Shown: positions 3-24,845, numbered from the stretch's first letter. The stretch: 35,745 bases of DNA from an uncultured archaeon (GCA_964493715.1 CAZBPC010000025.1:1-35745), one strand, 5' to 3'. Numbers and translations: made by a program. Notes: generated by a model not told the origin, from the letters alone.

Positions 3-2156
3 TTATTATCTCCAACATTTATGATTCCAACAGTTTATTCTGCTGAAATCCAAGGTACAAGTGTTCCAAAAAGTTCTCAGATGCTTAGTAATCCTATTAG
101 CGTAGCGATTTATGATGATGCTAATACCACCGTACCTTCATATGCTGGTCCTGTAACATTAACAAATAACCATTCTAATATTCAAACTGCTTTATTAACA
201 GCAGGGTATGAAGTCACACTTCTATCGACTAATCAAATTTACAATCACGAGCTCCAAACTGCTAAATATGACATCTTTATTATAGCTGACCACATGCCAA
301 AGACTAATATTACAAATTTCGTCAAAGAATACTGGTTAGGTGGAGGTTCATTACTTTCAATGGATAGCGCTCTTAGCTTTCTTTGCTATGCTGGTATTCT
401 ACCTCCAGAATCTGTTGGTGATGAAGGATTAGGAACTTATTGGTATTATCAAAGCTCCACAATTCAAAATATTACTACCCGACATCCAGTTTCAAAATCT
501 TATTCCGTGGATGATACTTTTACCATAAGTAATCCAACGTTATCTGCTACTATTGACTGGGCTGCCCTTCAAGGCACAAGCATTGCAAGTGAATTAGTTA
601 AAATCGCCACTATACCTGGATTTCCTAATGCTGCTACAGTTGTGGCCTATGATCCGCAATCGAGAGGAGGAAAAGTTGTTTATATTGTAAATCATCGAGA
701 CTTAGAAGATGATGCGATACTAATCGATGCGATTGAGTGGTTATGTCCACGACCAAAAGCAAGAATACTATTCGATTTGTCCCACCTTTCCTACTATGGG
801 TTGGATTCATGGGATGATGTTGTTTTGAGTACTGTTTACGGAATTTGGAGAGACACTCTTGTAAGTAGAGGATACACTATTGATAAATTGTATCCTTCAA
901 TTTTGGGGAATCTTACAGCAAGTAATCTGCTTCCATATGATATGCTTTTCATTTGTATGCCAAGAAATAATTTTACATCAAATGAAGTAGCAGCTGTAAC
1001 TCAATGGGTTAGTAATGGTGGAGGACTTATCGCAATCGGAGAAAATTCTGCATTTATTGATGAGAATAACAATATTAACTATCTCTATGGAAATTATGAT
1101 TTACAATTGCTTTCTATTACTGAAACTAATGGTGCAACTTATTTTGTGGAACATCCTACTACTGAGGCATGTACCGAAATAACTGCTTTTGGTCCTGGAT
1201 CTATTAATTACTCTGGAGATGCCTTCCCAATTTGGGGACATGATGCTTCAGAAATATATGTAGCTGGACAAGAGTATGGTAATGGACGAATTGTCTTAAT
1301 GTCAGAGGTTAGTCCATTTCGAGATTCTGACATAAATGATGTGAGTAATCTCCAGTATGCCATCAACGTTGCGAATTGGTTAACTGCATCTAAGGCTGAG
1401 GTACTACTCTATGTTGATGAACCTTATAGTCCAAATTATTACCGAACTCCGGTTTCTAATGCTCTCAATGAATTGGGTATTGATTTCTACTTAACTTTTG
1501 ACGATTATTATCTGAACTTATCACTGAATTTGTACGATTGGAAAATAGTGATAATAGATAATCCCTGGTCGACTTTTAGTACTTCCGTGTTAACAACATT
1601 AAATGAGTATGTTAAAGAAGGGGGTAGATTATTAATGTCTACGTTCAGAGTTGATTTAATTCCAACTCATCCTTTATGGGCACGATTAGGATTTGCATTT
1701 GATCTAGAGCAACCTGGTTCATCGTCGCTGTATATTTGGGCTGCAACACATGCTATTTTTAATGTGCCAGTTGATTATGGGGCAGCAAGATTTGATCCAA
1801 TTAGGGATTATGGTGATGAGGGCGATCTTCTTAGAGTATATCCAAATGCTACAGCTTTAGCAGGATATACTGCAACTGAAACTGCTAATAATTCAAATAT
1901 AGTCTTAGGTAATGGTGGAAGAACACTATATAATGGTTATCTTATTGATCAATTTACTGGAGATATAGACGATTCTACTTATGCGGATAATTTTGAACTG
2001 TGGGTGAATGAAATAGCTTTTATGTGGGCACAGATTCAAACAACAACTCCACCATCCGGAATTCCTGGTTATGACATGTTTATCGTATTTGGGTCAATTT
2101 GCCTTACAATGGGAATTTTAGCAATAATTACTATCCGAAAGAAACGTTTACTATAA
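3..2156 (+). CDS. Cell-surface protein with three tandem class-I GATase-like/DUF4350(GIFT)-like modules and a C-terminal IPGY-TM-basic sorting signal (Loki-CTERM-like); probably 5'-truncated by the window edge
   Basis: Frame is open from base 3 (LLSPTF before the M at 21), so the true start is probably upstream. Three repeats of the pattern YDxxxI...xGGxL (YDIFII..EYWLGGGSLL; YDMLFI..QWVSNGGGLI; WKIVII..EYVKEGGRLL). Ends TTTPPSG-IPGY-hydrophobic helix-RKKR. Confidence 0.75.
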   Translation, partial: LLSPTFMIPTVYSAEIQGTSVPKSSQMLSNPISVAIYDDANTTVPSYAGPVTLTNNHSNIQTALLTAGYEVTLLSTNQIYNHELQTAKYDIFIIADHMPKTNITNFVKEYWLGGGSLLSMDSALSFLCYAGILPPESVGDEGLGTYWYYQSSTIQNITTRHPVSKSYSVDDTFTISNPTLSATIDWAALQGTSIASELVKIATIPGFPNAATVVAYDPQSRGGKVVYIVNHRDLEDDAILIDAIEWLCPRPKARILFDLSHLSYYGLDSWDDVVLSTVYGIWRDTLVSRGYTIDKLYPSILGNLTASNLLPYDMLFICMPRNNFTSNEVAAVTQWVSNGGGLIAIGENSAFIDENNNINYLYGNYDLQLLSITETNGATYFVEHPTTEACTEITAFGPGSINYSGDAFPIWGHDASEIYVAGQEYGNGRIVLMSEVSPFRDSDINDVSNLQYAINVANWLTASKAEVLLYVDEPYSPNYYRTPVSNALNELGIDFYLTFDDYYLNLSLNLYDWKIVIIDNPWSTFSTSVLTTLNEYVKEGGRLLMSTFRVDLIPTHPLWARLGFAFDLEQPGSSSLYIWAATHAIFNVPVDYGAARFDPIRDYGDEGDLLRVYPNATALAGYTATETANNSNIVLGNGGRTLYNGYLIDQFTGDIDDSTYADNFELWVNEIAFMWAQIQTTTPPSGIPGYDMFIVFGSICLTMGILAIITIRKKRLL

Positions 2157-5145: not shown

Positions 5146-6363
5146 ATGCCAGATAATAGTATTGAATTGATTACGAAATTCTTGGATAAATCAAAAATTA
5201 TCAATATAAAAAAGCTAAGATTAGAAGATATTGCTAATTTACCTACTTCCAACTTTAAGTTCTTAACGGATGCTGATGCTTCGTTATTTTCAGAATTATT
5301 TAAAATTTCAACCATCAGTCAATTTGCTGAACTAGATCCTGAAGAACCATTCTCAATTTTATATGAAAATGAAGCATCTCAGAGAAGGATCGAACATATG
5401 CTCCAAGCAGATCTTGAAATTGAAGAGAAACTTAAGAAAGCTGTTACGATAAGCTGTATAATTAAAAGGATTCAAGAAGAATCTGAGTCATACGTGAGCA
5501 AGGAACAAAAAATTGTGGTAGTTGGATTGGGAAATGCTGGTAAAACAACCATTCTAAGGAAATTTGGTGGACAAATTGGTATTAAAGATCTTGCTAAATT
5601 AACTCCTACAAAAGGTGTGCAACGAAAAGAGATTGTAACTTCAGATATGGCTCTAATTTTATGGGATTTTGGCGGACAAGAAGAATATAGAGATGTTTAC
5701 TTGAGTAATCCAGAAAAGTATTTTCTCAAGGTTGATCTGGTGATTTATGTTATTGATTTGCAAGATTCTGATAATTTTGAAAAAAGCATCAATTATTTCA
5801 CGCAAATCCTAGAAGTATTTAATAAATTAGAAGAAAATCCCTATATTTTAATTTTCATACATAAATTTGACCCGGATGTAAAGGATGATCCGGAAATAAT
5901 CTTAAATGTTGAATTGATTAAAGATTTGATTAAGGAGGTGTTTCAAGAAAATAAAAGATTCGAATATGACATGTATTTTAGTTCAATATACTCGGCAATT
6001 GCAAATGAACCAAAATTTTCGAGATATTTGAAAAATACCATGCAAAAAACAGCTACATTATCTGATATGAAGTTGGAAGGCATGTCAACTGTATTAGAGA
6101 GTACTTTAAATGGAATTATACGACTTTCTGAAAGTGTACTTACCCAATATAATGATTTGGATAGAAGGATTAGAACTCTTGAAATGAGAACTCCAATAGA
6201 TAAAGGGGCATTAAAGCCTTCAACTACAGTAGAATTATCCCCTGAACTAACTCCAACTCAAAGGTTCGAAGCAACAATAAGACCTGAAAGGCACGTAAAA
6301 TCGGCGATTTTAGCTGAACTAAATGATTTATTTGATAAAACAAAAAGACGGGATGCTACGTAA
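5146..6363 (+). CDS. Multidomain small GTPase (Ras superfamily, Rag/Arf-like) with N-terminal helical domain and C-terminal coiled coil
   Basis: G1 GLGNAGKT, G2 PTKG, G3 WDFGGQ, G4 HKFD, G5 SSIY. About 120 aa N-terminal and about 120 aa C-terminal extensions. Confidence 0.9.
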   Translation: MPDNSIELITKFLDKSKIINIKKLRLEDIANLPTSNFKFLTDADASLFSELFKISTISQFAELDPEEPFSILYENEASQRRIEHMLQADLEIEEKLKKAVTISCIIKRIQEESESYVSKEQKIVVVGLGNAGKTTILRKFGGQIGIKDLAKLTPTKGVQRKEIVTSDMALILWDFGGQEEYRDVYLSNPEKYFLKVDLVIYVIDLQDSDNFEKSINYFTQILEVFNKLEENPYILIFIHKFDPDVKDDPEIILNVELIKDLIKEVFQENKRFEYDMYFSSIYSAIANEPKFSRYLKNTMQKTATLSDMKLEGMSTVLESTLNGIIRLSESVLTQYNDLDRRIRTLEMRTPIDKGALKPSTTVELSPELTPTQRFEATIRPERHVKSAILAELNDLFDKTKRRDAT

Positions 6364-6482
6364 AATCCATTTTCTCTGCTAATACTTTTTGTTAATAAAA
6401 CTTCAAAATCATTCCATAGGGTTTTATAATTATTAAATATCGTTATAAAATTAATCTTAAAATAATATAGTGAGTGATAAGA

Positions 6483-6815
6483 ATGAGTTTTGAAGAAGAT
6501 TTTAATGATGAATTAGAACCAGTTAAATCAAAAACACCCGCTTCAAAGATACCATCTTCGGGAAAGAAGTCAACTCTATATTTTATGTCAACAATAGGAC
6601 CTGGAGAAAAAAAGGAAAAGCTTACCGTGAATGATGCTAATCGCGTGAGTGATGTAAAAAGAACCCTTGGTAATCTGTTTGGTTTGGATCCTGATGAATT
6701 TCATCTAAGTTCAGGAGGTGTTACTATGGATGAAAATAATCAATTAAGGGATTATAACTTGAATAATGGCGATGATATTCTTTTAATTCCTGCAAGTACG
6801 GCTGGTATTTTTTAG
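6483..6815 (+). CDS. Ubiquitin-like (beta-grasp) protein with a disordered N-terminal extension
   Basis: VSDVKRTLGNLFGLDPDEFHLSSGGVTMDENNQLRDYNLNNGDDILL aligns by eye with ubiquitin [47 protein letters not shown]. ATG 6483 is preferred over the GTG at 6474. Confidence 0.85.
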   Translation: MSFEEDFNDELEPVKSKTPASKIPSSGKKSTLYFMSTIGPGEKKEKLTVNDANRVSDVKRTLGNLFGLDPDEFHLSSGGVTMDENNQLRDYNLNNGDDILLIPASTAGIF

Positions 6816-14955: not shown

Positions 14956-15006
14956 CTCATTAGTTCATATCTTTATTTTAATTATATCAAATAATTGGAG
15001 ATTATA

Positions 15007-15603
15007 GTGCAGTTATATAGTGTAGCTGAAAATGGTGCTTTAAGAAAGGTTAAAAAAATTGATTTTGATGCTAGCAAAGTTTATCTTATTGATGACATAA
15101 AAACACTTTACATCTGGATTGGAAGCAAATCATCCAATAAAAAAACGGAATATAGTAATAAACGAGCCGAGGATTTAAACAAAAAAAGAAAAAAAAATGC
15201 AAAGATTGTCATTGAATATCAAGGAAAGGAATTTGGATCGTTTTTAGCTATTATGGAATTGCTTAATAAAGGAGAAATCGATGAAACGAGCGAGAAACGA
15301 CGTTTAGAACTGAAAATAAACTATAAGGACACATTAGAATTACTTGAAGCAGGAATAGAACCTGATTTCGAAGGAAAGGTTACAGTAGCAAGTCATGATT
15401 TAATTGAGGAAGGGCATTCTTATGAAATACTATGCGAAAAACTAGCAAAAATCCAATTGCACATGTTAAAGGGGAAAGGAAAGATAACAGCTGAAGAAAT
15501 AGATCAAAAATCTCATGAAATTTTTAAATCATCATCAACTTATGAAGAACTTTGCTGGTTAATTTCCGAATTAAGTGCTTTATTAGAAAAAAAATCCATC
15601 TAA
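15007..15603 (+). CDS. Gelsolin-domain protein with C-terminal helical domain (1DGelX-like Asgard actin regulator)
   Basis: KVYLIDD..LYIWIGSKSS...IEYQGKEFGSFL is the gelsolin repeat signature; C-terminal duplicated YExLC(W) helices. GTG 15007 is the probable start (track: TTG 14995). Confidence 0.82.
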   Translation: MQLYSVAENGALRKVKKIDFDASKVYLIDDIKTLYIWIGSKSSNKKTEYSNKRAEDLNKKRKKNAKIVIEYQGKEFGSFLAIMELLNKGEIDETSEKRRLELKINYKDTLELLEAGIEPDFEGKVTVASHDLIEEGHSYEILCEKLAKIQLHMLKGKGKITAEEIDQKSHEIFKSSSTYEELCWLISELSALLEKKSI

Positions 15604-16560: not shown

Positions 16561-18090
16561 TTAAAACTTGTCAGAATCCTTATACCATGAAGGGTACCAT
16601 TCGTAATAACTTAAAGGAAATGCTTTTTGTAATCCATCATACGAGGCTTTCACTAAAGTAGTTTTTCCTTGGCGATCTTTGTTTGATACTATGAGTTTTT
16701 TCTCTTCTAATGACTCCAATATTTTCCGAATTTCAGATCGACTCCCCCCTATATCTTCCCTCACATCATCTGGTGTGATATATAGCCCCGGGCTGACTTT
16801 ATAGTCGTGTGCTATGACTTTCAATACATTTTCTTCATTTACTTCCATGCCTTTAAATTTGGAGTCTCTTGTTGATATAATAGGTGCGTTAACATCATAA
16901 TTCCATCTATATCTAAGGTTTGTATTAAACAATGGAAGCATTGCAGAGAAACGATATATGATCATTTTTTGAATTTCATTTGTACCTGCTACTATTTCTC
17001 CTACTTTAGCTTCTCGTAATATCCGTTCTATTGGAAGGAATTTAGTGAGTCCGTCACCGCCAAGAATTTGAATAGCTTTTACTCCAATTTCTCTTGCATA
17101 TTCTGTATTAAATAATTTTGAAATTGAAGCTTCAATCATGGGTTCCTTACCTTCATCCAGTAAATGTGCGCAATAATAAGTATACAATCGAGATACTTTA
17201 GTCTTCATAATTATATCAGCAATTTCGCTTTGAACACCTGGAAATGTAAGAGTTGGGCGATTAAATTGAATTCTACGTTTGGTATAATTGAATAATACTT
17301 GAACAACATCTTCAAAAAGGCCACCAAACACTGCAGCACCTATGAGTCTTTCAAAGTTAAGCCCTGCCATCATGACATTCCATCCTTTTCCTACTTCTCC
17401 GACACGATTTTTATCTGGAATTCTTACGTGATCAAAATTAATGACACCATTCGGAACATTATCGAAACCAATTAATGGATTAATCTTTTCTAAAGTAAAA
17501 CCTGGTCTTCCTCTTTCTACTAAGAACGAAGTCAAATGACTGTACTGTTTGCGATCTCCGGGATCATCACTAGTTTTAGCATAGATGAAATACCTTCCAG
17601 ATACACCTGCTCCCGTTATAAATCGTTTCTTACCATTTATAACCCATTCATCACCATCCTTTGTTGCTGTTGTATGTACATTAGCCGCATCACTTCCAGC
17701 AAAAGGTTCTGTAATACAAAGTGCTCCCAATTCTTCGCCACTGGCAATTTTAGGAAGCCATTCTTGTTTTTGCTCTTCAGTACCAAACCTCAATATTTGC
17801 TCTAATCCAGCTAACATTGATACAGTGAAAACATGACCAACCGCATATAATCTTCCTAATTGCTCAGCAACAATACAGCTCCCAGTAGGACCTAATTCCA
17901 TTCCACCATACTTTTTTGGTACCCCTGCTCCAAAATAACCTTCCTTAGCAACTTTTTTGACTAAAGGCCAAGGAAATTCTGTTTTCCAAAAATAGGTTTC
18001 CGCTTCTTCATAATTTTTAGCAACAAATTCCCTTACTTGCTTAGAAATAGCTTTTTGTTCTTCTGTCCACCAAAAATATTCTTCACTCAT
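16561..18090 (-). CDS. Acyl-CoA dehydrogenase (isovaleryl-CoA dehydrogenase-like catalytic arrangement) with C-terminal winged-helix-like extension
   Basis: CITEPFAGSD, INGKKRFIT, RIQFNRP, QILGGDG, GTNEIQK; about 125 extra C-terminal residues. Confidence 0.92.
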   Translation of the reverse strand: MSEEYFWWTEEQKAISKQVREFVAKNYEEAETYFWKTEFPWPLVKKVAKEGYFGAGVPKKYGGMELGPTGSCIVAEQLGRLYAVGHVFTVSMLAGLEQILRFGTEEQKQEWLPKIASGEELGALCITEPFAGSDAANVHTTATKDGDEWVINGKKRFITGAGVSGRYFIYAKTSDDPGDRKQYSHLTSFLVERGRPGFTLEKINPLIGFDNVPNGVINFDHVRIPDKNRVGEVGKGWNVMMAGLNFERLIGAAVFGGLFEDVVQVLFNYTKRRIQFNRPTLTFPGVQSEIADIIMKTKVSRLYTYYCAHLLDEGKEPMIEASISKLFNTEYAREIGVKAIQILGGDGLTKFLPIERILREAKVGEIVAGTNEIQKMIIYRFSAMLPLFNTNLRYRWNYDVNAPIISTRDSKFKGMEVNEENVLKVIAHDYKVSPGLYITPDDVREDIGGSRSEIRKILESLEEKKLIVSNKDRQGKTTLVKASYDGLQKAFPLSYYEWYPSWYKDSDKF

Positions 18091-18331
18091 TATATTCTAT
18101 ACCTTAAAGAGTTAATATTTATGCTTGATAAAATTCTTCGTATATCTAAAAGTTTGGGGATTTTATCCACATTTTAAATCCAAATTCATGTATCGTTTAC
18201 AATTTTAATTCGGTTTTAAAAAATTTATCTCATAAATTTTTCGAGAGGATAAAATTAAATTACTTAGCTCTCATTATTCTTAAAAAATGCATAATAAATT
18301 GGATTTTTAATAAATAAAAAAGTGAATTACC

Positions 18332-19939
18332 ATATCAATTCCTGCATCTATCAGAGAAGGACCTCGAACGACCAATACCTTAGCAAAAAAAAGATATATT
18401 ATATATTACATTGCCATAATGGTCCTTGGAGCGCAACCTGCGTTATTTTGGATGTGGTATAGCTGGCAATTATTTCCTGTCAAAAATTTGTTATTTTATT
18501 CTCTATTTCCCTTATTATTTTTCATTGACATTATTTTCTTAATTCTAGGTTCCTCTATAGTTGCTAAAATATTTCTTATTTTTGCTAATTTATTTCATAA
18601 ACCTCAAGAGGGAGTCTATGAAATTTCAAAGCATGATAAAGATTATTCTTCATGGAGTTTAAGAGCAGTTATTAGAAAATGGCCTCTATGGTTAACACGG
18701 CAATTATCTTTACCAAGTCTTGAAAAATTAGTTACTAAATTTTTAGGAGTAAAATTATCCTATTCAAGTTCAATCCATGAAGCCTGGATAGATAGTGAGT
18801 TTGTTGAAATAGGCAAAAATGTAAAACTTGGCCAAGGATGTATAATTTCCAGTAATTTATTGGTAAAAAACAAGTTAATAATTAAAAAGGTAGTAATTGG
18901 CGATAATGTGATCATTGGTGCTCATTGCGTTATAGCTGCTGGGACTGTTATTGCCCCTAACACTGTATTACATTCAAATACAATGACAATAATTAATCAA
19001 CAACTTAAAACGAACTCATTATATCAAGGAGCTCCAGCAAATTCTCTTGGAAATAATAACTTGATACATGATAAAAACTTAATTGAAAAACAAATTTTTA
19101 AACCGGATAAAAAATATTCTGAAGAAGATTTGCGAACTCATGGAAAAGAACTTTCAGTTCCTTTCTATTTTTACATAGTTAGTGGATTTATTATCGTTGG
19201 AGTTTCATTTGTTTTACCCGGGATATTATTTTTTCTAACGTTTTATGGACTCTTAATTCCAACCATTTTCAACAACCCACTTACAATGACTCTAATTAGT
19301 GAATCGAATTTTTACGCAGTAATGTTACTGATTCCGCTCATCTTCATCGGAATTTATCTTTTACATCTATTTTGTATAATTCTGTTAACTCGTTGGTGGT
19401 ACCGACGTGCTGATGAAAGGGGGCCCTCTCAAGGAATCTTTGATAGAAACATGGAAATGGCTTCAACTAAATTAGATTATTATCATTTTGGATCGTTTCT
19501 CATGAAATATCCTATATTTGCAGTCTCTCGTTCTCCTTTTCCTTGGATACTTAATTGGGAATTAAATTTTATTGGATCAAATAAAATCGGTAAAGAAACT
19601 GTATTGGAAGAGACTTTTATTCATAGTCACGTGAATTTTGGAAAAAATTGTTATTTAGGAACTTCCTCTCACATGACGAATCACGTAGTAGATGGGGTAT
19701 ATGGAGAAGAAAATTTAACATTTGTAGGTATAGAAATAGATGACAATAGCATTTTGAATTTAGTAACTGGAGGATTACCAGGGACAGAAATAGGGAAAAA
19801 TTCCACATTTTTACCTGGAGCAACTACTATTAAATACGATAAAGTAGGTAATAACGGCGTGTATGGAGGATTTCCAGCTAAAAAGCTAAGTAAAAAGGAA
19901 ATTTTGTACTTTTTAGGAGGTGAATATGATGGAGAATGA
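18332..19939 (+). CDS. Membrane protein with two [2TM + left-handed beta-helix hexapeptide] units, acyltransferase-like; probable ATA start upstream of the track start 18419
   Basis: Hexapeptide runs VEIGKNVKLGQGCII / VVIGDNVIIGAHCVI and VNFGKNCYLG / TEIGKNSTF, ending in YQGAPA and YGGFPA; two TM pairs; frame open back to 18326. Confidence 0.8.
   Translation: MSIPASIREGPRTTNTLAKKRYIIYYIAIMVLGAQPALFWMWYSWQLFPVKNLLFYSLFPLLFFIDIIFLILGSSIVAKIFLIFANLFHKPQEGVYEISKHDKDYSSWSLRAVIRKWPLWLTRQLSLPSLEKLVTKFLGVKLSYSSSIHEAWIDSEFVEIGKNVKLGQGCIISSNLLVKNKLIIKKVVIGDNVIIGAHCVIAAGTVIAPNTVLHSNTMTIINQQLKTNSLYQGAPANSLGNNNLIHDKNLIEKQIFKPDKKYSEEDLRTHGKELSVPFYFYIVSGFIIVGVSFVLPGILFFLTFYGLLIPTIFNNPLTMTLISESNFYAVMLLIPLIFIGIYLLHLFCIILLTRWWYRRADERGPSQGIFDRNMEMASTKLDYYHFGSFLMKYPIFAVSRSPFPWILNWELNFIGSNKIGKETVLEETFIHSHVNFGKNCYLGTSSHMTNHVVDGVYGEENLTFVGIEIDDNSILNLVTGGLPGTEIGKNSTFLPGATTIKYDKVGNNGVYGGFPAKKLSKKEILYFLGGEYDGE
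19916..19923 (+). promoter_or_regulatory. Strong Shine-Dalgarno site inside the upstream gene (translational coupling)
   Basis: GGAGGTGA 5 nt before ATG 19929, which overlaps the 3' end of the upstream CDS (stop 19939). Confidence 0.65.
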
Positions 19940-20813
19940 TGAACCAATCGAAAGTAAGCTTGAAACATTAGATATAACTCAATTCCCTATTACAACAAGT
20001 GCCTTTACGTGGTTTCCAATGGGATCTGTGATTTACATTATCTTAAATATTCTTTCATTAATGATGCCCTCAGTAATGATTCTTACATTCTTTGAAGTTG
20101 CTATGAATTCAAGTTTCTTCCATTGGAGAGTTTATACCATTTTTGTTGATATATTCCTATGGTGGGGGAGTTATATTTTATGTACTTTATTTTTAAGTAA
20201 ACTATTCTTAATTTTGCTGAAATTAATTCATGTTCCTAAAGAGGGATTATTTAAATTAGATAAATCTGATAAGGATTATTATTATTATTGCTTGAGAGTA
20301 GTTGTTAAGAAATTTATTTTTTGGACATGGAATAATTTCTGTTTCCCTTGGGCAACTAATGCTGCTTTTAAATGGTGTGATATGAGAGCTGATTTTAAAA
20401 GTACCATGTTTGATGGTTGGTCAGATGTAGAATTTATTGATTTTGGAAATAACATGATGATCGGTCAGGGGGCCGTAATCTTATCGAGTATAATTATAAG
20501 AATTGATAATGAAGATTATTTTTTGATCAAGAAAGTTATAGTAGGTGATCATGTTGTTCTAGGCGGTCATGCCATCGTAGCACCGGGAACAGTCATAGGA
20601 AAAGGTACGACTCTTGGAATTTGGAGTATAACTCAAATTGGACAAGTTTTGGAACCCGATTACATCTATATTGGTCAACCTGCGAGAAAATATCAACCTT
20701 CCCAAAAATTTATTGAGTATGGCAGGAAATTAAAGGTACGAAGGTTGGTTGATTCAGAAGAAAAAGTGCCATATGATATCAGTACATTCACCGCCGATAA
20801 TATTGACGATTAA
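19929..20813 (+). CDS. Membrane protein with one [2TM + left-handed beta-helix] unit, paralogue of the upstream gene
   Basis: HVPKEGLFKLDKSDKDY resembles HKPQEGVYEISKHDKDY upstream; IDFGNNMMIGQGAVI, VIVGDHVVLGGHAIVAPGTVIG, YIGQPA. The track start at GTG 19920 lies within the SD site. Confidence 0.82.
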   Translation: MENDEPIESKLETLDITQFPITTSAFTWFPMGSVIYIILNILSLMMPSVMILTFFEVAMNSSFFHWRVYTIFVDIFLWWGSYILCTLFLSKLFLILLKLIHVPKEGLFKLDKSDKDYYYYCLRVVVKKFIFWTWNNFCFPWATNAAFKWCDMRADFKSTMFDGWSDVEFIDFGNNMMIGQGAVILSSIIIRIDNEDYFLIKKVIVGDHVVLGGHAIVAPGTVIGKGTTLGIWSITQIGQVLEPDYIYIGQPARKYQPSQKFIEYGRKLKVRRLVDSEEKVPYDISTFTADNIDD

Positions 20814-21708: not shown

Positions 21709-23118
21709 ATGGAAAATTTAATACAACCAGCCAAGTTTTCAACAAGACAAAGAATTAACTGGGCCTCTGCAAGTTTCGGAGGATCGCTAATTAGTGGAAT
21801 ATATGGCGCACTTCTCCCAATATTCTATATTGATTATCTTGGATTAGTAGAAAATGCAAATGTAATCTACATGATTCAAATCATATATCTCTTTGTTAAC
21901 GCTTTAAATGATCCCATATTCGGTTTTATCTCAGATAAAACTCGTGCTAAGAAGGGAAGAAGAATTCCATATATGCGTTATACTGCACCATTTTTAGCTT
22001 TGACATTTATCTTAATATGGTTTTCGCCTACTCAAAGTAGTGGTGATTGGGCTATATTTTGGTGGATGGTAATCATGACATGTCTCTATGATACGGCGTA
22101 TACAATAATATTCTTAGTATATTCTGCTTTATTGCCTGAAATCACGGAAAATGAAGATGAACGACAAGGTATGAAAATAATGGCATCATTCTTTAATTTA
22201 ATTGGGATGATTCTTGGATTTATAATACCAGATCTCTTTAGAAATCAATCCGCTTTCTTGTTACAGATGAGCATGATTGGAGTTGGAATTATTGGGGGTG
22301 CTCTTATAATGTATACAACATATAAGTTTAAGGAAAGACCAGAGTTCACGAAAGTAGATGAACCATTAGGATTAGTAGCAGCAATTAAAGCTACGCTCAA
22401 AAGAAAATCTTTCTTGGTTTTGGTAAGTGCTAATTTTATGGCTATCTTGATTCAATCATTAATTATAGGCTCGCTTTTCTATATTGCCGATTATATTACT
22501 CAAAGTTCGACAATACTGCTCCTCATAGCCATTTTCTTGCCCTTGATAATTGGGATATGGATTGTTCCAAAATTTACCAAGAAATGGGGTGTGGCGCGTG
22601 CAAATCAGTATTTACTCGCAATAGGAGGAATGGGACTTTTATTGCTATTCTTTTTCACTGATCCTATTTTCCCAACAGAATTAATATATCTACCCTTAGT
22701 AATAGCAGGGTTTGGATTTGTTGGACCATTAGTACTTAACGATATCATGTTTTTTCAAGTGACAGATGAAGACGAATTGGACACTGGAGTTAGAAGAGAA
22801 GCTGCTTTTTTTGGAATAAATGCGTTAATAACGAAACCAGCCCAGAGTCTAGCGATTGTAATCCCAACAGCATTATTAGCTATATCTAGTTTTATCCCAC
22901 GAGATGAATTTGGTCTTCCTGTATTACCCCAACCTGCTGCGGCAATTTTAGCTATTAGACTTTTTATAGGTCTCATACCAGGTATCGCCTTAATACTTGC
23001 AGCAATTATTCTTCAATTCTATCCACTAAAAGGAGAACATTGGGCAACGATGCAACAAAAGATATTGATATTGCATGATGAAAAACATAAAAAGCTCCAA
23101 GAAATGACACGTGAATAA
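21709..23118 (+). CDS. MFS transporter, GPH (MelB/glycoside-pentoside-hexuronide:cation symporter) family
   Basis: NALNDPIFGFISD, GRRIPY, YSALLPEIT, DEDELDTGVRREAAFFG; about 12 TM helices. Confidence 0.92.
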   Translation: MENLIQPAKFSTRQRINWASASFGGSLISGIYGALLPIFYIDYLGLVENANVIYMIQIIYLFVNALNDPIFGFISDKTRAKKGRRIPYMRYTAPFLALTFILIWFSPTQSSGDWAIFWWMVIMTCLYDTAYTIIFLVYSALLPEITENEDERQGMKIMASFFNLIGMILGFIIPDLFRNQSAFLLQMSMIGVGIIGGALIMYTTYKFKERPEFTKVDEPLGLVAAIKATLKRKSFLVLVSANFMAILIQSLIIGSLFYIADYITQSSTILLLIAIFLPLIIGIWIVPKFTKKWGVARANQYLLAIGGMGLLLLFFFTDPIFPTELIYLPLVIAGFGFVGPLVLNDIMFFQVTDEDELDTGVRREAAFFGINALITKPAQSLAIVIPTALLAISSFIPRDEFGLPVLPQPAAAILAIRLFIGLIPGIALILAAIILQFYPLKGEHWATMQQKILILHDEKHKKLQEMTRE

Positions 23119-24056: not shown

Positions 24057-24845
24057 ATGGGAAAAAACTTAATTATTGATAATCAAGCAGTTTCAAATAT
24101 AGTTTTTTATCCAAGAAAAACCTCAATTCCAACTAATTTAGCACCAAATATTCATAAACTTCAATTTAAAATCTCCCAAAGAATCTTGATCGGGGGATTA
24201 TTTTTTCAGAAAGAAGAAAATCTCCCTACTATTCTTTTATTTCATGGAAATGGTGAAATTGCTACAGATTACCTTCTTTTCGCACGAATGTTCTTTGAAT
24301 GTGGCGTCAATTTGGCAGTTATGGATTTTCGTGGTTATGGATTTAGTACTGGAGAGCCCTACTACACAAGTCTAATTTCAGATGCAATGCCAATCTATTT
24401 TGGTTTGAAAAAATGGATGGACTCAAGGGAATTAAACGATTCAATTTTCGTTTTGGGAAGATCTTTAGGGAGTGTGTGTGCAAGTGAAATCGGAGCCAAT
24501 AACCCTAATGAGCTCAAAGGAATCATTTTTGAGAGTGGATTTGCTAGTGTATATAATATAATGACTCAATTATTCCGTGTTAAAAGTTCTCAAATGACAC
24601 CATCATCCCTCGATAAATATTCTAATGATTTTCGTGCAAGAAAATTGAAGAAACCTGTCTTAATAATTCATGGATCTTCCGATATGATAATTCCCCATTC
24701 GGAAGCAAACTTGTTATATAAAAACATACCTGAAAATGTGGAAAAAAAATTGGTTATTATTGAAGGAGCAGGTCATAATGATATTATTAATTATAGGGTA
24801 GAATATTTCTCAGCATTGGAAGAGTTTATTACTAAAAATAAATAA
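24057..24845 (+). CDS. Alpha/beta hydrolase, BEM46/ABHD13-17-like
   Basis: FHGNGE, DFRGYGFSTG, nucleophile GRSLG, HGSSD, GAGHND. Confidence 0.9.
   Translation: MGKNLIIDNQAVSNIVFYPRKTSIPTNLAPNIHKLQFKISQRILIGGLFFQKEENLPTILLFHGNGEIATDYLLFARMFFECGVNLAVMDFRGYGFSTGEPYYTSLISDAMPIYFGLKKWMDSRELNDSIFVLGRSLGSVCASEIGANNPNELKGIIFESGFASVYNIMTQLFRVKSSQMTPSSLDKYSNDFRARKLKKPVLIIHGSSDMIIPHSEANLLYKNIPENVEKKLVIIEGAGHNDIINYRVEYFSALEEFITKNK

Follow-up and report, generated by a model that had tools for sequence, protein, structure and literature searches.

Genes A and B are two overlapping genes within a 35,745-nt stretch of DNA from an uncultured Asgard archaeon of the Lokiarchaeia type (GCA_964493715.1, CAZBPC010000025.1:1-35745; the whole stretch is hereafter called the window). 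With somewhat more confidence than doubt, we propose that they provide the three subunit types of one membrane acyltransferase-like enzyme, which would form a mixed pseudo-trimer with one active site and would use coenzyme A (CoA) thioesters as donors. From sequence comparisons and structural models we infer how the subunits assemble, that the active site is single, that the donor is a CoA thioester and that the acceptor is a membrane one.

To our knowledge, the terminal module of the synthetases Pls and PosA is the only amide-polymerizing machine of this build, and we know of no solved structure for it. In the parts of the literature that deal with it, the C-terminal module of Pls/PosA is modelled as a beta-helix pseudo-trimer above six transmembrane (TM) helices (PMC10522769) and is treated solely as part of synthetases (PMC10522769, PMC8506220). 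No report of stand-alone Pls-type modules or of Asgard transmembrane hexapeptide acyltransferases was found in our literature search. On the pattern of the Pls/PosA model, the three left-handed beta-helix (LbH) domains, two from gene A (units 1 and 2) and one from gene B (unit 3), would pack as a single pseudo-trimer above six TM helices. The middle unit, which we call type 2, would supply one catalytic interface, because it alone keeps a histidine at the coil turn together with an invariant polar block, and types 1 and 3 would serve as its scaffold. An acyl group would then be passed from a CoA thioester to an acceptor that lies at the membrane or within it, in a reaction that could be either a single acylation or a repeated, polymerizing one.

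The three units share one order of elements: a TM hairpin, a short strand with the motif PxEGx(F/Y), two helices, and a left-handed beta-helix that ends in GxPA. By BLASTP, unit 3 is 36% identical to unit 1 over 183 columns (E 2e-37) and 20% identical to unit 2 (E 5e-8), while units 1 and 2 are 22% identical (E 1e-9); the three are paralogues. Hydropathy places TM segments at residues 25-47, 52-91, 275-315 and 323-358 of gene A and at 32-60 and 71-104 of gene B, and the AlphaFold2 model of gene A has helices at 22-49, 55-90, 280-315 and 327-365 (positions here are those of the whole window, and residues are counted from 18326 for gene A and, for the TM segments of gene B, from 19926). Hydropathy, models and paralogy agree with an earlier note on this DNA, which had described six TM helices and three beta-helix domains distributed as 2 + 1 copies, and the PxxGx(F/Y) and GxPA motifs that it named are present in all three units. 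In the post-TM motif of unit 1, P93 is invariant among 47 orthologues and H91 and G96 are kept in at least 90%; in that of unit 3, H102 and G107 are invariant among 50 orthologues and P104 and E106 are kept in at least 90%.

Structural models give the same picture. For the 537-residue form of gene A, AlphaFold2 returned a mean predicted local distance difference test score (pLDDT) of 84.9 and a predicted template modeling score (pTM) of 0.84, with block pLDDT values of 82-96 in TM1 (residues 22-49). For P0028, a natural fusion of all three units (808 aa, without TM1), the values were 76.1 and 0.75, from an alignment made up of gene A orthologues and one fused paralogue in which unit 3 had only one aligned row. 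Every unit of the P0028 model shows a strand, two helices and a beta-helix, and the pTM values of both models speak for defined positions of the units relative to one another. The units differ in how readily they are recognized. Gene A passes the 27-bit cut-off of the Pfam Hexapep family (PF00132) at 49.3 bits with its best stretch in unit 1, and unit 3 stays under it at 22.1 bits. Unit 2 alone has a weak DapD-type match in NCBIfam (E 0.0016) and is recognized by fold only: its counterpart in the fused-orthologue model aligns to the solved LbH acetyltransferases QdtC, SAT, PglD and MAT with Z scores of 13-15. Several fold alignments combine the helices of unit 1 with the beta-helix of unit 2 (model range 31..454). 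As to topology, gene A has five K/R residues in its N-terminus, seven in the segment after TM2 and one in the TM1-TM2 loop; because the first two segments are K/R-rich, the positive-inside rule would put the beta-helix domains on the cytoplasmic side.

The two genes are tightly linked. ORF analysis of the plus strand at 18326-20813 finds two open reading frames (ORFs) that overlap by 11-14 nt, and the Shine-Dalgarno sequence of gene B lies inside the final codons of gene A, 4 nt from ATG 19929, as expected from the earlier note's description of overlapping genes coupled through a Shine-Dalgarno sequence. This organization is kept in relatives, where an ATG overlaps the end of gene A by 7 to 16 nt in 21 of 28 related loci. 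Judged by the aligned codon, gene B starts in relatives with ATG, CTG or TTG; the junctions of six of the 28 loci have no ATG, and of these six, three have CTG and one has TTG at the aligned position. We also observe that the Shine-Dalgarno sequence of gene B is encoded by the conserved G-G-E-Y tail of gene A, a dual coding constraint. Gene A lies directly upstream of gene B in 28 of 29 loci, the 29th of which starts inside gene B, and three clusters of natural 1-2-3 fusions were found, namely P0028, which is 55-56% identical to genes A and B, P0268 (797 aa) and P0271. The linkage on which the earlier note relied is thus general among relatives.

The window's own genome holds 12 units, and these fall into three types by bit score, the type-2 group scoring 145-344 within itself and at most 70 to the others. 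Type 1 comprises unit 1 of gene A and the 312-aa and 316-aa proteins of a paralogue locus on contig C86; type 2 comprises unit 2 of gene A, a 311-aa protein of C86 and the first half of the 633-aa protein of C86; and type 3 comprises gene B, a 303-aa protein of C86 and the second half of the 633-aa protein. The arrangement is (2)(3)(1) and (2-3)(1) in C86 and (1-2)(3) in the window, which is the same cycle. When 12 loci from 7 genomes were typed with hidden Markov models (HMMs) built from the gene A and gene B alignments, the order was 2->3->1 wherever a type 3 was called, whether the genes were separate (and overlapping) or fused as 2-3; in one genus (g4), the gene in the middle was scored as a type 1. 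The same cycle is followed by the fusions (1-2, 2-3 and 1-2-3) and by the 3-1 gene overlaps, as would be expected if three different subunits formed a ring. Complete fusion of such a ring would give a single-chain pseudo-trimer such as Pls.

An alternative is that A and B form separate homo-oligomers and that their adjacency is simply the operon organization of two paralogous enzymes. Acyltransferases of the left-handed beta-helix type are usually homotrimeric, and another Asgard family has a relative that consists of one unit and carries a turn His of its own. This relative is a 253-aa TM-TM-LbH ORF found in three genomes (L083:1519-2277 (-), L084 and L085), which matches positions 5-238 of TIGR02353, the NCBIfam profile for the Pls-type terminal module, with the TM pair included and at 92-93 bits, and matches the family profile in hhalign with a probability of 97.9 (E 3.4e-13, 149 columns). 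At a threshold of about 93 bits, TIGR02353 rings in only one of 14 control genomes (Corynebacterium glutamicum). The 253-aa ORF is possibly a homotrimeric, ancestral-like form. For A and B themselves, however, we consider separate homo-oligomers quite improbable: fusions occur at the 1-2, 2-3 and 1-2-3 junctions with a constant cyclic order, the own genome has four type-2 units against eight others, the turn His is missing from types 1 and 3, and since A alone has two beta-helices, three copies of it would make six.

Within the proposed mixed pseudo-trimer, the best candidate for the active site is in unit 2. His453 (His422 in the numbering of the shorter, 506-aa form of gene A) is the sole turn His among the three units, the equivalent residues in units 1 and 3 being N177 and S188, in keeping with what the earlier note had seen. 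In a set of 190 type-2 units, from which domain hits below 80 bits or covering at most 200 HMM positions had been dropped, it is kept in 185, that is, in 122 of 122 units at the level of orthologues and 63 of 68 at the level of paralogues; the conservation across Asgard genomes on which the note's idea depended is therefore present. H387 is likewise kept in all 122 orthologue-level units and in 55 of the 68 others. The invariant block of unit 2 among 47 gene A orthologues includes Y385, Y386, H387, S403-W407, E428, H433, H449, N452, H453, D456 and G457, among others. By analogy with MAT/GAT or LpxA-type enzymes, His453 is a candidate for the general-base His at the coil turn.

The pattern of one His among three units extends well beyond Asgard archaea. 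The His453 column of units 1, 2 and 3 reads N, H and S in P0028, as in the window. Among bacterial single-chain proteins with three units, it reads S, H and L in P0323, S, H and V in P0326, N, H and C in P0332, and N, H and V in P0373; in P0351 it reads H and H, the third unit not having been captured. The His is thus confined to the middle unit in four of these five proteins, and a single His-bearing middle unit is thus common to the window's module and the distant bacterial stand-alone forms. In P0361, a protein of the nonribosomal peptide synthetase (NRPS) type, the column reads S, A and H, with the His in the third unit only. The single-unit ORF of the other Asgard family has H.

The conserved histidines of unit 2 could instead be read as metal ligands, in which case the module would be no acyltransferase but a beta-helix capping a membrane complex, with a structural or metal-binding role. 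The gamma-carbonic anhydrases (CA/CAL) of plant and protist complex I offer a precedent, being a membrane-attached LbH heterotrimer with degenerate sites. The best PDB sequence matches are indeed CA-like complex I subunits (7ar9_x, E 6.1e-7), and unit 2 orthologues have four invariant His (433, 435, 449 and 453). We nevertheless find this scarcely credible. Three of the four, H433, H435 and H449, are specific to orthologues and not retained in paralogues; the gamma-CA profile NF050158 gives 32.1 bits for gene A and 13.3 for gene B against a cut-off of 250; CoA-dependent acetyltransferases lead the fold matches; and no genes for a partner complex are linked to the pair. The gamma-CA proteins are, moreover, part of complex I and lack TM hairpins of their own of the kind found in A and B.

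Fold comparisons bring the soluble part of a unit closest to the MAT/LacA/WcaF family, to whole chains of which it aligns over 149-153 residues with Z scores of 14.0-14.3 (3igj_A, Z 14.1 over 150 residues; 3nz2_C, Z 14.3 over 153; 3srt_A, Z 14.0 over 149). Chains of the maltose O-acetyltransferase type are the best Foldseek matches, and one of them, 3igj_A, aligns to residues 20-177 (unit 1) of the orthologue model. The second-best NCBIfam match is NF058585, the YvoF-type heptaprenylglyceryl-phosphate O-acetyltransferase (73.6 bits for P0028 and 43.4 for gene A). All O-acetyltransferase family scores are far under the cut-offs, which are 183-347 bits for the maltose/galactoside families; the profiles used were NF007499 (25.1 bits), NF007076, NF007797 (38.3 bits) and NF058585. 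Unlike A and B, which have TM hairpins, dissimilar units and one His, enzymes of the MAT family are soluble homotrimers of about 185 residues per chain with three equal sites.

The closest match in architecture is the Pls/PosA terminal module. Like it, genes A and B have three repeats of a TM pair, a linker (strand and two helices) and a left-handed beta-helix, and the same order of strand, helices and beta-helix is seen in the portion of the PosA model (AlphaFold/RoseTTAFold) that covers the terminal domain (PMC10522769). Six TM helices in three pairs that alternate with three beta-helix domains are found only when A and B are taken together. TIGR02353 is the best NCBIfam match of both genes (55.6 bits for A and 30 for B) and of eight of 11 pieces tested; the match always falls on the first unit of the profile (positions ~69-226) and starts before the beta-helix. 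An exhaustive search with the family profile recovers 8014 proteins at E <= 0.001, 967 at 1e-10 and 94 at 1e-30. It reaches P0361 (1711 aa) in three stretches at E 5.6e-30; this protein has an adenylation domain (TIGR01733, 338.6 bits, above the cut-off), three TM-LbH units and a TIGR02353 score of 201 bits. The 253-aa single-unit ORF of the other Asgard family, through its matches to both TIGR02353 and the family profile, also favours a specific relation to Pls. Like P0361, A and B have the turn His in one of three units; unlike P0361, in which it is the last, theirs is the middle one. We draw no mapping of type 2 to C3 of Pls from the type-2 HMM alone: its best stretch in Pls-like proteins is in the last unit, but scores 11.6-18.6 bits and lies downstream of the His. 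Further differences from Pls/PosA are that the module is split over two genes, that it lacks an adenylation-thiolation (A-T) didomain, the genome encoding no carrier, and that similarity of its TM region to true synthetases is not detected by HMMs of the TM pair and linker. We conclude from these comparisons that A/B is a distant homologue of the Pls-type module with the same architecture, and not a member of the curated family. The likeness to the Pls C-terminal region claimed in the earlier note holds as a best profile match and through P0361; it does not extend to the score that family membership would call for.

Several results weigh against our proposal and should be set beside it. The curated cut-off of TIGR02353 is 423.1 bits, and gene A, gene B and the fusion P0028 (83.8 bits) are far below it. 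At E <= 0.01 the profile rings in all 14 control genomes, so that weak matches are unspecific, and at its cut-off it finds nothing in 299 Asgard genomes. The hhalign alignment to P0361 spans 125 columns only (P0361 and P0408 give a range of 125-134 columns). HMMs of the TM pair and linker match two bacterial three-unit proteins weakly (17.3 bits; full-sequence E 5.7e-4) and do not match the NRPS-type P0361 or P0408; because these HMMs miss NRPS-type proteins, the homology to true synthetases is shown for the linker and beta-helix and not for the TM part. Several arrays carry, for each type-1 gene, two or three genes of the (2-3) fusion, and the C89 locus of the own genome has two units without a type 2; type 1 may therefore be shared and the gene stoichiometry not strict. 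Finally, gene neighbourhoods vary by lineage and point to no particular substrate. In the larger arrays (L068-L073, genomes G223, G250, G049, G190 and G274), we note that the (2-3) fusions stand before a single type-1 gene, which suggests interchangeable catalytic modules with one common scaffold subunit.

If the proposed enzyme is an acyltransferase, its donor is most likely a CoA thioester. Neither an A nor a T domain was found in genes A and B or in the rest of the window, and the own genome, with a completeness rating of 100%, has no PP-binding match. The 13 AMP-binding ORFs of that genome are of the size of acyl-CoA ligases and all lie on other contigs, which bears out the earlier note's view that the module stands without an NRPS part. 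In the window's family, PP-binding was found in 10 of 69 genomes (six of the matches inside ORFs of 881-3525 aa) and in none of the other 59, against 66 of 66 genomes with the TM-LbH family. Because the genome lacks a carrier domain, a CoA thioester is the likelier and most economical donor.

The absence of carriers bears also on the possibility that A/B is a true Pls-like polymerase, which would condense thioester-activated monomers (aminoacyl-, hydroxyacyl- or similar CoA) onto a free chain and export the polymer through the six-TM bundle. The architecture is that of polymerases, which are the only characterized enzymes of this build in the portions of the literature concerned (PMC10522769, PMC8506220), and the gene neighbours offer some encouragement. 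A carbon-nitrogen hydrolase directly follows the (2)(3)(1) triplets in five of 10 paralogue loci (L068:13737-14534 and equivalents), 11 of 13 loci have an alpha/beta hydrolase (24057-24845 in the window) close to the A-B pair, and an acyl-CoA dehydrogenase stands beside the pair, divergent, in eight of 13; in a genus further removed, the neighbouring genes encode an enoyl-CoA hydratase, three 3-hydroxyacyl-CoA dehydrogenases and an SDR (short-chain dehydrogenase/reductase). We still consider a polymerase rather unlikely, in that linked activating or carrier domains are lacking, the similarity to Pls is distant, and the neighbours are common Lokiarchaeial genes whose adjacency may be inherited synteny. 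A bacterial relative also points to single acylation: the Planctomycetales single-chain protein heads an operon (L066:8971-17407) of sugar-nucleotide and glycosyltransferase genes, with a GT1 glycosyltransferase, a GMC oxidoreductase, an SDR and RmlA/B/D-like genes.

The bacterial three-unit proteins are single chains of 650-690 aa, labelled Elusimicrobiota, Planctomycetales and Omnitrophota, with three TM-LbH units and no A-T didomain; P0332 is a 960-aa fusion of this form to an SDR. They resemble A/B in a motif of the P-x-x-E-G-x-F type after TM2 and in weak collinear matches to the TM and linker HMMs, and differ in being one polypeptide, in scoring 157-184 bits with TIGR02353, in having units that are more alike and in being annotated as hypothetical. 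The set consists of P0323, P0326, P0351, P0373, P0332 and P0408, and one of the clusters holds a protein from a Goniomonas transcriptome. Searches of PDB by sequence (with gene A and the family profile) and by Foldseek returned generic beta-helix chains and no Pls-like membrane chain, and a 'longer' word search for homologues returned no NRPS-fused form.

The family is widespread in its lineage. A word-indexed search gave 174 homologues of gene A and 209 of gene B; all organism labels shown are Asgard except one 'marine sediment metagenome', and a cluster search with a gene B homologue gave Promethearchaeota clusters only, plus one Bdellovibrionota cluster. A gene-B-like match (E <= 1e-10) is present in 82 of 299 sampled genomes of the phylum: 66 of 66 in the window's family, seven of seven in a family of the same order, the one genome of a third family of the class, and six of 21 and one of five in two other families, with none in the remaining 25 families of the sample. 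The strict A-B orthologue pair is patchier, occurring in nine of 27 genomes of the window's genus, the own genome included; paralogues are in all 27. Database annotation of the family is 'acyltransferase' or 'hypothetical' only. As to transcripts, one metatranscriptome run yielded a 156-nt contig that matches 18876-19031 without a difference and a piece of 143 nt with eight differences; these do not demonstrate transcription, because such libraries can contain DNA.

The start of gene A deserves separate mention. Its frame is open from 18326, right after TGA 18323-18325, and its first canonical start is ATG 18419, which gives 506 aa and retains no more than 12 residues of TM1. The stretch of 29 codons that begins at ATA 18332 (29-31 codons ahead of the ATG) is conserved, and homologues of 531-542 aa start with that stretch; in P0034 and P0061, the ATG aligns to ATA 18332. 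Six close relatives have ATA or ATT at this codon, with a canonical TTG nearby in one only, and 6 nt upstream of it have (A/C)GTGA in five cases and GTGGA in the sixth (loci L048-L053). ATA 18332 is therefore the probable start, which agrees with the position at which the earlier note began the gene: TM1 requires it, the codons ahead of ATG 18419 are conserved, and the ATGs of P0034 and P0061 align there. A frameshift or sequencing error was ruled out, as contigs from two independent metagenome runs match the start region with 0 differences and no indel; the region is not an assembly error, because these contigs are independent. Gene callers begin gene A at ATG 18419, and most database entries (506 aa) are accordingly without the first TM helix.

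Table 1. Features of the A-B gene pair in the window and paralogue loci of the same genome.
Feature	Position	Strand	Evidence or remark
Shine-Dalgarno-like AAGTGA	18320..18325	+	6 nt upstream of ATA 18332
Gene A	18332..19939	+	unit 1 (type 1) and unit 2 (type 2); stop TGA 19937-19939
TM1 (22-49), TM2 (55-90), unit 1	18389..18595	+	hydropathy; model H22-35, H37-49, H55-90, block pLDDT 81-97
Post-TM motif H-K-P-x-E-G-x-Y, unit 1	18596..18619	+	membrane-face short strand; model strand E96-99
Left-handed beta-helix 1, residues ~150-243	18773..19054	+	Hexapep 49.3 bits; TIGR02353 positions 98-220
TM3 (280-315), TM4 (327-365), unit 2	19163..19420	+	hydropathy, AlphaFold2
Diverged beta-helix 2, residues ~420-515, candidate catalytic unit	19583..19870	+	invariant cluster, fold alignment
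His453 codon (His422 in 506-aa numbering)	19682..19684	+	sole turn His among three units
GGAGGTGA, Shine-Dalgarno of gene B	19917..19924	+	within gene A codons for G-G-E
Gene B	19929..20813	+	unit 3 (type 3); stop 20811-20813; alternative starts ATG 19926, GTG 19920
TM5, TM6, unit 3, B residues ~30-60, ~70-102	20013..20231	+	hydropathy; fused-orthologue model H497-526, H533-569
Post-TM motif H-x-P-K-E-G-x-F, unit 3	20229..20252	+	50 orthologues
Left-handed beta-helix 3, B residues ~165-255	20418..20690	+	TIGR02353 positions 131-233; fused-orthologue model strands 639-720
Paralogue locus	C86:6317-12510 (L046)		five genes, six units, two full triplets
Paralogue locus	C89:5202-6782 (L047)		two units, no type 2
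Paralogue locus	C9:37481-38284 (L078:6503-7288)		lone type-2 gene

Residues 271-295 of gene B (20736-20810) form an acidic C-terminal tail of type 3 that is conserved among orthologues, with R272 and R273 invariant and D276, E279 and D284 kept in at least 90%. It is a low-confidence helical region of the model and may be a docking motif.

Around the A-B pair, the 13 loci have, besides the dehydrogenase and the alpha/beta hydrolase, a small ORF of no assigned family (9/13), a histidine phosphatase (10/13) and an MFS_2 transporter (5/13). Ten loci with paralogue arrays have a CxxCxxCC protein in seven cases and a zinc alcohol dehydrogenase in five. The neighbours of the lone type-2 gene on C9 are three alpha/beta hydrolases (L078:3251-5870), an ADP-forming acyl-CoA-synthetase-like gene and three glycerophosphodiester phosphodiesterases. 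Such neighbours fit acyl-CoA and lipid or glycan chemistry, and shared ancestry explains much of the synteny. In the window, the acyl-CoA dehydrogenase (16561-18090 (-)) is divergently transcribed from gene A and is 509 aa long, with about 130 extra C-terminal residues, its three Pfam domains ending at residue 380. The MFS_2 gene near the pair is intact (21709-23118); on C89 the MFS_2 transporter is split into two ORFs (L047:999-1643 and 1660-2391), which may be a frameshift or a pseudogene. Elsewhere in the window are genes for a Rag/Arf-type GTPase (5146-6363), a ubiquitin-like protein (6474-6815) and a gelsolin-repeat protein (14995-15603), eukaryote-signature genes typical of Asgard archaea.

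Finally, we note what the module could mean for the enzymology of NRPSs and biopolymers and for Asgard membrane biology, to both of which it is relevant. A natural Pls-type module in separate subunits and free of an A-T didomain offers small pieces to express, mix and solve, and its three distinct unit types, one with a conserved His, allow a test of which pseudo-equivalent site does the chemistry. Experiments on the family are possible, because a member is present in the cultured Lokiarchaeum ossiferum. The probable AUA/AUU initiation of gene A has been overlooked by gene callers. A bolder proposal, which we regard as unlikely, is that Lokiarchaeia possess multi-copy, carrier-independent, Pls-type heterotrimeric membrane synthases, with one catalytic and two scaffold subunits and four sets in the present genome, which would use CoA thioesters directly to make a secreted polyamide or polyester or to place ester-linked acyl groups on membrane lipids. 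The acyl-CoA dehydrogenase, hydratase, hydroxyacyl-CoA dehydrogenase, hydrolases, ADP-forming synthetase-like protein and glycerophosphodiester phosphodiesterases encoded nearby fit a synthase role without demonstrating it. For Asgard biology, the family is lineage-wide, multi-copy and located at the membrane, and if its role were in lipid acylation, it would fill the place of an acyltransferase that is missing for bacterial-type or mixed lipids in the archaea related to eukaryotes.

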